Below are positions 39,497-62,231 of a stretch of 64,000 nt of DNA, one piece after another; the stretch's first letter is position 1, and every line of letters starts with the position of its first letter. The notes under the pieces were generated by a model. The model had not been told where the DNA came from, made no database searches, and worked only from the letters and a program-made list of their open reading frames with translations. This DNA comes from an uncultured bacterium. GTDB lineage: Bacteria > Cyanobacteriota > Vampirovibrionia > Gastranaerophilales > Gastranaerophilaceae. The stretch spans positions 12,277 to 76,276 of the forward strand of contig CATLLJ010000003.1 of assembly GCA_950022495.1 (NCBI GenBank), given 5' to 3'. The translations under genes were made by a program, and so were the position numbers.

Positions 39497-39505
39497 AAGT
39501 ATACC

Positions 39506-39545
39506 AAAAAGCGAGCCTGATATATTATATCAGGCTCGCTTTTTG
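39506..39545. terminator. bidirectional terminator
   Basis: AAAAAGCGAGCCTGATAT-attat-ATCAGGCTCGCTTTTT between convergent genes. Confidence 0.75.
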
Positions 39546-39556
39546 GTTGAGTGAAT

Positions 39557-56415: not shown

Positions 56416-57312
56416 ATGAGCAATATAAATATAGGGAAAATTTTATCGTTTTTACTTTTAATTCTGATTTTGGGCGGTATTGTTGTAACTTATTTTTCAC
56501 ATACGTATATTCGGGCTGAATTCAAAAAAATGGACCCGATGCCGGCAAGAATGGGGGTATATTATAAGGGTTATAAATTAGGTTCAACAAATAAGTTAAA
56601 AATTTCAAAGGACTTTAAAAAAACATATTTATACATAACTCTTAATCAAAGAGGATTGCATTTACCAAAAAATATAACTGCACGCATAAAAAATTATGAT
56701 GAAGATACAAAATATGTTGACCTGATTTATCCATCTGCACCTATGCTTAAATATATCAGGACAGGGGATACAATTAAGGGCGAATCAGGGTTTACATTTA
56801 GCGGAATTTCAGATATAAATCAGGCTCACCTTGATGATTTATCCGAAAAGGGTGAAAATTTACTGAGTTCAGCCACTAAGGCAACCGATTCTTTAACTGA
56901 ACTATTTGATTTAATAACAGATATTCTTACAGAAAATAGAGAAAATATTCACGAGTCAACGACATATTTGAAAAACAGTATGTTAAATCTTGAAGCTACA
57001 ACCTGGAGTCTCAAGGATTTGTCAGGTAAGATAAATGATGAGGTAACCCGTAAGACTATTAGAAACAGTGCGAATAATCTTGAACAAATTACTTCAAATT
57101 TTGCGTATACTTCTAAGGATTTCATATCAATTTCAGGTAATTTTAATAAGACAAGTTCTGATTTCTCTGTGCTTGTGCCAAAACTAAGTGTCTTGATTGA
57201 TGCGGTGCAGTTAGTTGTCTGCAATGTAAATGACATTGTAGTCGGAGTGAAGAAAACTTTGCAAAAGAAATTTGGCGGAGCAAGGATAATTTTCGGTAAA
57301 CCAATGAGTTAA
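56416..57312 (+). CDS. MlaD/MCE-like membrane protein
   Basis: N-terminal TM, an MlaD-like beta domain (GVYYKGYKLGSTNKLKISKDFKKTYLYITLN...ARIKN) and a helical C-terminal part. Confidence 0.5.
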   Translation: MSNINIGKILSFLLLILILGGIVVTYFSHTYIRAEFKKMDPMPARMGVYYKGYKLGSTNKLKISKDFKKTYLYITLNQRGLHLPKNITARIKNYDEDTKYVDLIYPSAPMLKYIRTGDTIKGESGFTFSGISDINQAHLDDLSEKGENLLSSATKATDSLTELFDLITDILTENRENIHESTTYLKNSMLNLEATTWSLKDLSGKINDEVTRKTIRNSANNLEQITSNFAYTSKDFISISGNFNKTSSDFSVLVPKLSVLIDAVQLVVCNVNDIVVGVKKTLQKKFGGARIIFGKPMS

Positions 57313-57340
57313 GGGGGGAATAACATATATTATGTTAAAA
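57313..57340 (+). other. dif-like XerC/XerD recombination site (candidate chromosomal dif)
   Basis: GGGGGGAATAA|CATATA|TTATGTTAAAA compared with E. coli dif GGTGCGCATAA|TGTATA|TTATGTTAAAT (quoted from memory) matches at 8/11, 4/6 and 10/11. It lies in a convergent intergenic region where gene orientation switches. Confidence 0.6.
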
Positions 57341-57771
57341 GGCTCTATTCTTCATTTCTTTCTCTTGCTTGTTAGCTCGCAATAAACGGGACTACCGCCA
57401 AAGCTCAACGCTTTGAGCGTTCGCCCTCTGCTCGCTATACGCTTTATTGCGAGTAAAAGAGAAAGAAACGCAAGCAAAGAATGCGTAAGCCGGAGTGTAA
57501 GCACTCGCTCGGCGGCGTTGAGCCGGCGAAGAAGTGCTGAACTTAATATCTACGACGTAAGAGCGTAGCTCCACAGGAGTAGAAAGAGAAAAACGCGACC
57601 AAATGAAACGAGTTATCAGGGGCAAAGCCTCCGAACCCCCATAGGCTAAAGGAAGGTTCGGAAACGTAGTTTCTGATAACTCGAGCAATTTAATCCTGCG
57701 TGTTTTCTTTTCTTTCCGCCCATTTCTTTTCTTTTGCATCGCAATCAAAAGAAAAGAAATGGGCAAAAGGG
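57341..57771. other. GC-rich, ORF-free, highly structured 431-bp cargo between two inverted dif-like sites (candidate structured RNA or miniature Xer-dependent element)
   Basis: My hand count gives about 45-60% GC per 60-nt line, against AT-rich flanks. Perfect helices are 57718-57736/57746-57764 (19 bp), 57609-57619/57673-57683 (11 bp), 57631-57637/57655-57661 (7 bp), 57376-57386/57443-57453 (11 bp) and 57355-57364/57459-57468 (10 bp). Confidence 0.55.
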
Positions 57772-57799
57772 AGGTTACATAATATATGTTATATCATAT
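57772..57799 (-). other. second dif-like site in inverted orientation
   Basis: The minus strand reads ATATGATATAA|CATATA|TTATGTAACCT. The XerD-side arm matches B. subtilis dif TTATGTAAACT (from memory) at 10/11. The central region is identical to the left site. The site overlaps the bioA stop codon. Confidence 0.5.
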
Positions 57800-59138
57800 T
57801 CTCCATAACTTCAGTCATGCATTCTTTTGCTATATCAGTTACATAATCCATGTCTTCAGGCTGGATAATCAATGGCGGATTAAAATAAATTACATCCCCG
57901 AGCGGTCTGAGCAGTACGCCTTTTTTCAACGCCTTTTTATATATCTGATAACCTAAACGCAAATTTGATGGATAAGATTCTTTTGAGTTTTTATCCTTTA
58001 CTATTTCTATTGCATTTACAAGACCTATGTGGCGAATTTCTCCAACATAAGGCAAGTCTGCAAATTTATCATTAATAATTTTGTTAAAATATTTTGCATT
58101 TTCTACTGCTTTTTCAATAATTTTTTCATCTTCCAGTATATTTAACACTTCTATTGCCGCAGAACACGCAAGAGGGTTTCCTGCGTATGTGTGGCTGTGC
58201 ATAAAAGCTTTCCCTTTACCGTAATCATCATAAAATGCGTCGTAAATTGGTTGTGTTGTAACACAAATAGACATCGGCATATAACCGCCTGTTAATCCTT
58301 TTGAAAGACACATAATATCCGGTGATACTCCTGCGTGGTCAAATGCAAACATTTTGCCTGTACGTCCATAACCTGTGGCGATTTCGTCAGCAATAAGATG
58401 GACATTATACTTGTCACATAGTGCACGTAATTTTTTCAAATAAAGCGGCGGATAGATTTTCATACCAGCTGAACCTTGTAAAAGCGGTTCGACAAGCATT
58501 GCACAGGTTTCATCTCCGTATTGTGCAAATGTCTGTTCTGCTTTTTCAAAACATTCACAATTACAGTTATCGCGGCATTTACCATACGGACATCTGAAAC
58601 AGTCCGGACCTTGAACTCTTACAACATCCATTAAAATCGGCTTGTAAATTTCAGAATATAGATCACATGCCCCGACGGATAGTGCACCTATTGTTTCTCC
58701 GTGGTAAGCATCTGATAATGCCATAAAGCGTTTTTTCTTTGTGTTTCCTGTCTGCTGGTGGTATTGAAAACTCATTTTCATTGCCATTTCAATTGATGCT
58801 GAACCATTGTCTGCAAAGTTAAATTTGCATAAACCTTCTGGTAAAACTTTCATTAGTTTCTGGCATAAAGTTATTGCAGTTTTGTGTGTAAAATTTGCAA
58901 AAATAACGTGTTCTAGTGTGTCTAACTGCTTTTTCATTGCGTTATTTATTCGAGGATTGCAGTGTCCTAAGAGGTTGCACCACCACGAACTTATTACATC
59001 TTTATAGCAATTCCCGTCAATGTCATATAAGTTTATGCCTTTTGCGTGGTCAACTACAATAGGCGGAAGTGTTTCGTAGTCTTTCATTTGTGAACACGGG
59101 TGCCATATATATTTTAAATCTTCTTCCTGCCAATTCAT
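57789..59138 (-). CDS. bioA: adenosylmethionine-8-amino-7-oxononanoate aminotransferase
   Basis: 449-aa class III aminotransferase with DEIATGYGRTGKMFA and LSKGLTGGY (PLP lysine). It is coupled to bioD by a TAATG overlap. Confidence 0.9.
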   Translation of the reverse strand: MNWQEEDLKYIWHPCSQMKDYETLPPIVVDHAKGINLYDIDGNCYKDVISSWWCNLLGHCNPRINNAMKKQLDTLEHVIFANFTHKTAITLCQKLMKVLPEGLCKFNFADNGSASIEMAMKMSFQYHQQTGNTKKKRFMALSDAYHGETIGALSVGACDLYSEIYKPILMDVVRVQGPDCFRCPYGKCRDNCNCECFEKAEQTFAQYGDETCAMLVEPLLQGSAGMKIYPPLYLKKLRALCDKYNVHLIADEIATGYGRTGKMFAFDHAGVSPDIMCLSKGLTGGYMPMSICVTTQPIYDAFYDDYGKGKAFMHSHTYAGNPLACSAAIEVLNILEDEKIIEKAVENAKYFNKIINDKFADLPYVGEIRHIGLVNAIEIVKDKNSKESYPSNLRLGYQIYKKALKKGVLLRPLGDVIYFNPPLIIQPEDMDYVTDIAKECMTEVMENMI

Positions 59139-61972: not shown

Positions 61973-62231
61973 CTTCTATTAATTATTTATATATCTATAC
62001 GTATATCTATTTTTATATCTAAGATTATTGTCCAACGATGGTTGTAAAATAAAAACCTTTTTACTAATTTTGTTACAAAGATTTTACAAAAAGTATATTA
62101 TTTTACACTACAATATTATACAGAATTTTGATTACTGTGTAAAGATGTTACAGAAAAAATAAACCATTTGGATTACTATGCATGAAATATAAATTTGTGC
62201 TATTATAATCATTGTTAAAAGGAGATATATT

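Follow-up and report, generated by a model that had tools for sequence, protein, structure and literature searches.

The 431-bp stretch 57341-57771 of the DNA analyzed here (a 64-kb window, i.e., 64,000 nucleotides from an uncultured bacterium of the Gastranaerophilaceae) lies between two inversely oriented sites of the Xer/dif type, and the segment between the crossover points in these sites occurs in both orientations in nature. At a rough probability of 0.6, we propose to read the stretch as non-coding cargo, belonging to a small, invertible module that exploits the Xer system in the chromosome of a gut-dwelling member of the Gastranaerophilales (Melainabacteria). Inversion at two loci, the architecture of the sites, two Xer paralogs and a lineage-restricted presence were directly established, with three loci found in all. 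An earlier note, made from the letters of the window, had described the stretch as a dif-flanked cargo that folds like a large structured RNA. This interpretation as a whole was partly supported, as detailed below.

Both sites are built from an 11-bp arm, the 6-bp spacer CATATA and a second 11-bp arm. The left site begins directly after the stop codon of an mlaD-like gene (57310-57312), and the right site contains the bioA stop codon (57789-57791) within its outer arm. The XerD-type arms, TTATGTTAAAA and TTATGTAACCT, both face inward, with ATAA/TTAT in the inner arms; the right site is quasi-palindromic and its arm assignment hence less certain. We searched the window with ATAA-N6-TTATGTTAAA, the conserved part of dif in Escherichia coli and Bacillus subtilis. 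The left site alone matched without mismatch in the 64 kb, while at up to three mismatches the dif pattern gave 81 matches in this AT-rich DNA versus 57 expected. A published table of plasmid dif (pdif) sites, with ATTTCGTATAA as XerC arm and TTATGTTAATT as XerD arm (PMC13141974), agrees with the pattern used. The two sites share a 16-nt perfect inverted repeat around the cargo, the sole one that long within 1-kb spacing anywhere in the window. Together with the exact left match, this repeat bears out the dif-type flanks pointed out in the earlier note. The CATATA spacer is asymmetric and identical between the sites only in inverse alignment, therefore a tyrosine recombinase would invert the intervening DNA and not excise it.

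Contigs of relatives were fetched with the MlaD-like protein, and inversion was read from comparison of the assemblies. Five contigs with an MlaD-like protein 100% identical to that of the window (L001, L003, L004, L005 and L067) have the orientation of the window. In L002/L065 and L006, where the protein is likewise 100% identical, positions 57320-57792 are reverse-complemented at 100% identity with mlaD and bioA intact; the end-points of the inversion in L002 and L006 map to 57320 and 57792, i.e., inside the repeats. These inverted copies lie on contigs of 254 kb, 209 kb and 257 kb from independent studies with both unique flanks intact, and they keep the locus-specific 76-nt and 112-nt blocks of the cargo at 100% identity. 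Moreover, the 16-bp repeats are far below assembler k-mer length, thus the orientation difference is not an assembly ambiguity. We conclude that the segment inversion at this locus is real. Both orientations were also found in a sister species with 94% MlaD identity, one in L011 and the other in L007-L010, L018 and L059. The elements of those assemblies differ by about 7%, so inversion there may be old. Inversion leaves the flanking proteins unchanged, because the stop codons are located either in the repeat or beyond the exchanged DNA. What inversion does swap are the inner arms, i.e., the best XerD arm TTATGTTAAAA moves from the mlaD side to the bioA side.

We traced further copies through a conserved 22-mer of the cargo, which led to the end module of about 115 nt in new contexts. 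Locus 1, between mlaD and bioA (window and L001-L011), has the spacer CATATA and XerD-type arms inside. Locus 2, between an EngB-like GTPase gene and fprA (L068, L069, L070 and L076), has the spacer TATTAT or TATTGT and XerD-type arms outside (TTATGTAAACT, TTATGTAAAAA). At locus 3, between dus and the gene of a 205-aa protein (L086), the copy, about 90-95% identical, is likewise located between inverted dif-like sites, again with the spacer CATATA and XerD-type arms outside. Two genomes with locus 1 (GCA_948956345.1 and GCA_902475545.1) also have locus 2, where the copy is about 90-95% identical and lies between a 19-bp perfect inverted repeat of dif-like sites. This second copy occurs in both orientations beside an identical FprA (L069 and L071-L075 versus L068 and L070), with the crossover within sites that share the spacer TATTAT. 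A related species with the same locus-2 synteny (L084) is without the element. Where present, it separates the GTPase stop codon from the ancestral terminator hairpin of that gene, upstream of fprA. At all three loci the insertion starts 0-2 nt past the stop codon of the upstream gene, the cargo must hence be co-transcribed with that gene. A further species examined for locus 3 (P0251) has a different synteny and so offers no clean empty site.

Two other explanations for these positions were considered. A target-site duplication would be a sign of classical transposition; there is none at locus 1, and a possible 9-mer duplication at locus 2 (CAAAATAAA) is not common to all strains. Locus 2 has dnaN nearby and a local skew minimum, but was rejected as a replication origin, because DnaA boxes are absent and the genes on both sides run on the same strand.

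Three observations concern rearrangements around these loci. In contig L059 (640-1100, compared with L086 4060-4180), an element connects the locus-1 mlaD gene and left site with the right flank of locus 3; both sites have the spacer CATATA and stand in direct orientation there. This contig is either a real recombinant between loci of equal spacer or an assembly chimera. The block plsY - 186-aa gene - class-IV aminotransferase gene - dnaN is inverted in one of the two sister species relative to the other (L069 versus L076, 5730-9209 in both), with no dif-like site at the single boundary available. Finally, a third, split dif-like sequence (AGATAATATTAT...TATGTAAAAA, minus strand, L069 3690-3775, also in L076 and L068) is found 22 nt right of the right locus-2 site and overlaps with the GTPase gene's ancestral terminator hairpin. 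By analogy, this three-site layout resembles the one left by folded single-strand integration.

The element is restricted to a narrow lineage. More than 20 related Gastranaerophilales species keep the mlaD-bioA junction, and in all of them the element and any dif-like site are absent from it; their gap of 0-200 bp has only ordinary terminator hairpins or small palindromes resembling repetitive extragenic palindromes (REP). The whole locus-1 unit, including its sites, is therefore specific to two sister species. We found no further copy elsewhere in the 64 kb, nor in about 450 kb of syntenic loci from 39 other species. The contigs with the element are chromosomal (200-750 kb, housekeeping neighbors, no plasmid match), and neither a BLAST search of the element against phage and plasmid collections nor an exact 22-mer scan over viral contigs gave a match. 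REP-like palindromes occur in intergenic 3′ regions across the order, i.e., in L021, L023, L034, L037 (mlaD-bioA junctions), L045 and L048; they are of the types GTCAYTCYGA...TCRGARTCTC and CCCTCACCC...GGAGAGG, and some were matched in several loci. Three syntenic contigs of 75-76% identity (L027, L036 and L056) were deposited as Methanomethylophilaceae archaeon, Muribaculaceae bacterium and Clostridium sp., names that are probably binning or labeling errors.

The maximum of the cumulative GC skew coincides exactly with the element at locus 1. The gene strand switches at the same place, from plus for about 50 kb leftward to minus for at least 15 kb rightward. Together these features look like a replication terminus, and the left site may be the chromosomal dif. 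The window also encodes a XerD-like tyrosine recombinase of 289 aa. Its score with the NCBIfam XerD model TIGR02225 is 319 bits, below the cut-off of 329.6, whereas with NF001399 (XerC/D subfamily) it reaches 310.7 bits and passes the cut-off of 279. It is 36% identical to E. coli XerD and 39% identical to a XerC-like paralog that the same species encodes at a distance of 2.7 kb from locus 2. The window showed no serine invertase. A cluster of dif-like matches at about 62.08 kb, i.e., about 4.4 kb downstream of the element and recurrent in relatives, was considered as a real dif and rejected, it belongs to a conserved divergent promoter/ribosome-binding region instead. This intergenic region between bamA/shlB-like and skp(ompH)-like genes (61973-62231) is conserved nearly base for base in more than 20 Gastranaerophilales species. 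Its three spaced TATATCT repeats and long invariant A-rich blocks suggest a regulatory region with a bound factor.

The stretch stands out by composition. Its G+C content is 46.4%, compared with 33.0% for the whole window, and no other 431-nt stretch in the 64 kb is as GC-rich; one 60-nt line (57481-57540) reaches 62%. The earlier note had been correct on this local enrichment and on the position between convergent 3′ ends, which are the stop codons of the mlaD-like gene on the plus strand and of bioA on the minus strand. Folding as RNA gave z-scores of -7.97 for the plus strand and -8.97 for the minus strand, with 0 of 100 shuffles equally good. For the whole module folded as single-stranded DNA, flanking sites included, z was -10.96, and in this predicted fold the terminal repeats pair into one duplex site. 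Every perfect helix that had been listed from the sequence was present on inspection; two nested ones given as 10 and 11 bp exist, but are actually 12 bp and 11-12 bp long (H1 in Table 1). A protein-coding reading was rejected, because a 124-aa open reading frame (ORF) on the minus strand has no Pfam match and is not kept in relatives; the cargo holds no conserved ORF. Elsewhere in the window, a 22-bp perfect palindrome with a 1-nt center (39503-39547) lies between convergent genes and resembles an ordinary bidirectional terminator.

Table 1. Features of the module, its neighbors and the candidate recombinase (positions in the window).
Feature	Position	Strand	Remarks
Left Xer/dif-type site	57313-57340	+	GGGGGGAATAA / CATATA / TTATGTTAAAA (11+6+11); XerD-type arm toward cargo
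Right Xer/dif-type site	57772-57799	-	ATATGATATAA / CATATA / TTATGTAACCT (11+6+11); inverse to left site
Left half of 16-bp perfect inverted repeat	57320-57335	.	ATAACATATATTATGT; holds crossover of observed inversion
Right half of 16-bp perfect inverted repeat	57777-57792	.	Inverted match of 57320-57335
Invertible segment, 441 bp	57336-57776	.	Cargo and inner site arms; both orientations, 100% identical sequence
Hairpin H1	57355-57468	.	Polypyrimidine TTTCTTTCTCTT paired with AAGAGAAAGAAA; in all copies
H1 outer helix, 12 bp, perfect	57355-57366 / 57457-57468	.	Helix search
H1 nested helix, 11-12 bp	57375-57386 / 57443-57453	.	Helix search
Palindromic sub-element in H1 loop, 76 nt	57367-57442	.	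Specific to the window's copy; absent from L011/L007/L069
Middle block, 112 nt	57469-57580	.	Three small hairpins, GC-richest part; lineage- and locus-specific
Hairpin H2	57609-57683	.	Predicted four-way junction; 11-bp outer stem, two mini-hairpins, 7-bp inner stem
H2 outer stem, 11 bp	57609-57619 / 57673-57683	.	Encloses 7-bp inner stem
H2 inner stem, 7 bp	57631-57637 / 57655-57661	.	CCGAACC/GGTTCGG; helix search
H2 apical loop	57638-57654	.	Hypervariable in copies otherwise 94-100% identical
Conserved end module, about 115 nt	57649-57765	.	Right half of H2, linker, polypyrimidine tract 57701-57717, H3
Hairpin H3	57718-57736 / 57746-57764	.	19-bp perfect polypyrimidine/polypurine stem, 9-nt loop with CGCAAT; helix search
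MlaD/MCE-like gene	56416-57312	+	Left neighbor; stop codon 57310-57312
bioA	57789-59138	-	Right neighbor; stop codon 57789-57791
XerD-like tyrosine recombinase, 289 aa	19320-20189	+	Candidate catalyst; profile and sequence comparison

All copies have in common H1, a purine-rich linker, H2, a second linker, a polypyrimidine tract and H3. H1 and H3 remain near-perfect hairpins despite sequence differences between copies. H3 shows a compensated change from C-G to A-T in relatives and at least seven two-sided changes between the window and the locus-2 copy of the same species (L076). Since pairing in H1 and H3 is kept through two-sided changes, secondary structure is maintained in some way. The end module is about 90-95% identical across every copy and locus. 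By contrast, the closest relatives and the other copies lack about 190 of the 431 nt (57367-57442 and 57469-57580); the other copies carry different insertions in their hairpin loops. The middle block, with hairpins AGCACT/AGTGCT, CGGC/GCCG and TCTAC/GTAGA (AGCACT...AGTGCT around CGGC/GCCG at 57500-57538), is lacking in the 94% relative, the locus-2 copies and the locus-3 copy.

H2 carries a different tip in every strain. Its loop differs between the window, L001 and L067, with an AAA/TTT flip in L001, and its tip in L007 (4040-4150) and L059 (815-925) has a REP-like insertion of 90-110 nt, CCCTCAC...GGGTGAGGG. In L076, circular permutation has left the locus-2 copy with one half of H2 at either end, and in L060 the left half is replaced from H2 onward, i.e., H2 is the rearrangement breakpoint in both. 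The outer stem of H2 has decayed in L067 and L086.

Smaller elements appear nested in the hairpins. A sub-element of about 75 nt (CGCAWTAAACGG...GCTCAACGC...CTCTGCTC...CGCTTT) is located in the H1 loop at locus 1 and inside H3 at locus 3 (L086 3815-3895), where it replaces the H3 5′ arm and part of the loop. Both of these loops have CGCAAT/ATTGCG, and the sub-element thus resembles a tiny element with hairpin loops as its target. A repeat of the H3 5′ arm is found in the tract TTTCTTTTCTTT (57704-57715). As this tract can likewise pair with the purine arm of H3, the mirror repeat AAAGAAAAGAAA, an alternative hairpin or an intramolecular triplex is possible at 57701-57764. In L086, where the normal H3 5′ arm is disrupted, the alternative pairing of the TTTCTTTTCTTT type is the sole one remaining.

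Inversion in nature could also mean that the module is a functional phase-variation switch. Turning the segment around would then alter the 3′ untranslated region (UTR), termination or antisense transcription of the flanking genes, i.e., mlaD and bioA at locus 1 and, at locus 2, the read-through that reaches fprA from the GTPase gene; the hairpins would be orientation-dependent stabilizers or terminators. Such a switch is in line with both orientations at two loci, with co-transcription of a cargo that starts 0-2 nt past the stop codon at all three loci, and with the asymmetry of the cargo (H1 end versus H3 end). The position of the locus-2 element between the GTPase stop codon and the ancestral terminator, upstream of fprA, would suit it as well. 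A simple scan for σ70-type promoters and intrinsic (U-tract) terminators, however, gave no consensus match in the element in either orientation. Moreover, the hairpins are palindromic, so the structures of the two orientations closely resemble each other, locus 1 has no recombinase gene of its own, and the genes manage regardless in most related species, which are without the element. We consider a switch unlikely.

The next alternative is a structured non-coding RNA gene. Transcripts of the cargo, or at least of its end module (H2, H3), would then have a function as RNA, and the presence of sites resembling dif would be incidental. We scanned the stretch against Rfam 15 at gathering and permissive E-value thresholds and found no family over threshold in 57341-57771, as the earlier note had expected from the letters; sub-threshold matches were miRNA-hairpin look-alikes only, on the 19-bp hairpin. 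A tRNA/tmRNA scan (ARAGORN) found none at the locus. In a covariation check among variants of the window type, two compensated pairs stood against eight with pairing-breaking sequence, and the RNAalifold covariation term was unfavorable (+6.7), contrary to what a large RNA would predict. Both compensated pairs are in the middle block (57469-57580); for near-identical variants, two such pairs are above chance prediction, and several one-sided changes would be G-U wobbles on the minus strand. Covariation does not extend over the whole length of the cargo, H1 and H3 alone covary.

The exceptional, non-random folding on which the RNA interpretation was based thus stands, whereas a single RNA gene of about 400 nt is not supported, because the segment flips relative to outside transcription, has no promoter or terminator consensus, and can dispense with about 190 of its 431 nt, with unrelated insertions in other copies. 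The decay of the H2 outer stem in L067 and L086 also argues against it. The extreme z-scores on both strands, the GC enrichment within an AT-rich genome and the perfect pairing of H1 and H3 through two-sided changes speak for an RNA. However, nearly all helices are palindromes with perfect Watson-Crick pairing, for which the two strands fold alike, and they point as much to DNA as to RNA. DNA palindromes acquire hypervariable tips and perfected stems through center-directed breakage and repair and through quasipalindrome-templated correction, and such repair yields palindromes of this kind without selection on RNA. One large RNA gene at 57341-57771 is hence not supported. The structure most likely belongs to the DNA element itself, and RNA from the cargo would be a passenger 3′ UTR of neighboring genes. 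The end module could still function as a structured RNA or a protein-binding accessory region. Taken together, an RNA gene in either form appears improbable to us.

Rearrangement without site specificity, i.e., homologous recombination or replication template switching in a palindrome-rich hotspot with a chance resemblance to dif, has to explain why three independent loci end in sites of the ATAA-N6-TTATGT type with spacers matched within each pair, and why the left site is an exact dif match. It would draw on the breakpoints inside the cargo at H2, on the AAA/TTT flip in the L001 loop and on the many weak dif matches in AT-rich DNA (81 versus 57 expected). Yet the crossovers fall exactly within cores of 16-19 bp and leave the sequence 100% identical, and repeats this short are poor substrates for RecA-type recombination. 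We regard this explanation as very unlikely. Assembly artifacts, in which mis-joining at repeats of metagenome contigs would have produced the differing orientations and the additional loci, are hardly credible, since the inverted copies hold the 76-nt and 112-nt blocks at 100% on long contigs with unique flanks from independent studies and the repeats are shorter than any assembler k-mer, even though the element is a repeat of 250-450 bp at several loci, L059 could be chimeric, and many contigs (L005, L006, L009-L011, L067 and L070-L075) end inside the element, which fits heterogeneity or palindromes.

We compared the module with known systems. Dif modules of Acinetobacter Rep_3 plasmids consist of two inversely oriented XerC/XerD sites, each with an 11-bp arm, a 6-bp spacer and an 11-bp arm; D forms have XerD arms inside, C forms XerC arms inside, and a module cannot be excised alone (PMC13141974; bioRxiv 10.1101/2024.04.09.588662). 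In these plasmids, inversion between inversely oriented pdif sites with identical spacers and a D module without ORF have been described (PMC13141974). The module found here has the same inverse 11-6-11 sites, with locus 1 of D type and loci 2 and 3 of C type, and likewise inverts between sites of equal spacer (CATATA at locus 1, TATTAT at locus 2). Unlike the Acinetobacter modules, which reside on Rep_3/OrfX plasmids in alternating C/D arrays beside the replication backbone, it is chromosomal, belongs to Melainabacteria and is solitary. Its cargo is merely 250-440 bp, non-coding and palindromic, one copy lies at a probable replication terminus, and the same cargo is found in C and D contexts. 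The Acinetobacter dif module is the closest known system; its structural definition applies here, its plasmid-array context does not.

Other systems share fewer features. Integrative mobile elements exploiting Xer (IMEX), such as CTX-φ, TLC-φ, the gonococcal island and Legionella LME-1, use host Xer and dif-like sites at the GC-skew maximum; the attachment region of CTX-φ consists of two inverted dif-like sites that pair in single-stranded DNA (PMC9765430). Sites of Xer type and the position at a skew maximum recur here, and the terminal repeats pair as in CTX-φ in the predicted single-strand fold. IMEX, in contrast, are kilobase-sized, carry genes and lie between directly repeated sites at a pre-existing dif, whereas the present module has inverted sites and no genes, and it inverts; the two empty sites examined are without dif, and direct sites were seen only in the possibly chimeric L059. 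Xer-family enzymes are reported to be able to drive invertons (PMC2784873, PMC3599477). Invertons such as E. coli fimS, the Clostridioides difficile cwpV switch with RecV, and Xer-like systems of Mycoplasma/Ureaplasma resemble the module in their short inverted repeats, their size of a few hundred base pairs and the occurrence of both orientations in natural populations. They differ in carrying a promoter or altering a coding sequence or 5′ leader, while the module lies after stop codons of convergent genes and has no promoter-like site.

With REP, bacterial interspersed mosaic elements (BIME) and miniature inverted-repeat transposable elements (MITE) the module shares that it is non-coding and exceeds the genome in G+C content, that it forms hairpins and has several copies, that it is placed in 3′ regions where convergent genes meet, and that insertions are nested in hairpin loops; REP-like palindromes also fill the mlaD-bioA junction in other species. 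It is set apart from them by a very low copy number (at least three loci), borders of Xer type, no clear target-site duplication and flipping as a unit. Integron attC sites are recombined as folded single strands by a tyrosine recombinase related to Xer. They, too, are imperfect palindromes in which the stems are conserved and the central loop is hypervariable; unlike in integrons, however, no integron integrase, cassette array or R/L box pattern was seen.

We thus favor the module that exploits Xer, for which we propose the following mechanism. Host XerC and XerD would bind both sites and pair them within one molecule, and strand exchange in the 6-bp spacer would turn the 441-bp segment around. 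XerC/XerD, and not another recombinase, would be the catalysts of the inversion. The palindromes may serve the element in that cruciform or hairpin formation brings close sites together; alternatively, a single strand may fold, with the terminal repeats forming one duplex Xer site as in the predicted structure. The palindromes would be perfected by palindrome-templated repair, and the element would spread by using Xer. Inversion would presumably be a by-product of little consequence for the host, with the exchanged DNA outside both coding sequences. By analogy, the module behaves like a selfish or near-neutral element that exploits Xer, following the same logic as the Acinetobacter dif modules.

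Several points weigh against this proposal. Firstly, the empty sites of locus 1 (L012 group) and locus 2 (L084) have no pre-existing dif-like target, thus Xer recombination alone cannot explain the arrival of the element. Secondly, the same cargo is found with XerD-type arms inside at locus 1 and outside at loci 2 and 3, and with this opposite arm polarity a simple module transfer is insufficient. Thirdly, the 94% relative has degenerate inner arms (TTATGGAAAAA, TTATAGACATA) and yet shows both orientations. Also, the sites of loci 2 and 3 are equally good and locus 2 at least is away from any strand switch, so that locus 1 may lie at the terminus by coincidence. Finally, the end hairpins pair perfectly through many two-sided changes and about 115 nt are strongly conserved; such upkeep and conservation would likewise be compatible with a functional RNA or with a region that binds protein.

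A wider reading, which we put forward as a possibility but doubt more than we believe, is a family, not described so far, of miniature mobile modules that have no genes and depend on host XerC/XerD in the chromosomes of uncultured gut Melainabacteria. Each copy would be a nested palindrome ending in inverted dif-type sites, the duplex would flip, and the single strand would fold its ends into a duplex Xer site, as in the CTX-φ attachment hairpin or integron attC. One copy would supply or occupy the chromosomal dif at the replication terminus. Loci 1 and 3, which share CATATA, would recombine and rearrange the chromosome, as L059 suggests. If such a family exists, the principle of dif modules would extend beyond Acinetobacter plasmids, and Xer sites would spread with structured non-coding cargo.

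For the hunt for RNA genes the case holds a caution, i.e., intergenic DNA that is GC-rich and folds strongly within an AT-rich genome can be the palindromic cargo of recombination sites. Inversion and family membership became visible only through comparison and not from the single sequence. Xer recombination is usually viewed as a housekeeping function with a single target site in the chromosome. To our knowledge, mobile modules with inverted Xer sites have been described for Acinetobacter plasmids only, and how those move is unsolved. This architecture, with natural inversion at two loci, is now found in a distant, uncultured phylum and on the chromosome, which is of relevance to specialists in site-specific recombination and mobile elements. 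If our proposal is true, Xer sites spread and persist in pairs without gene cargo, and the module would be a minimal model for dif-module mobility, with the conserved hairpins as sole candidates. Moreover, an inverted dif pair at the probable terminus would then have to be tolerated by chromosome dimer resolution.

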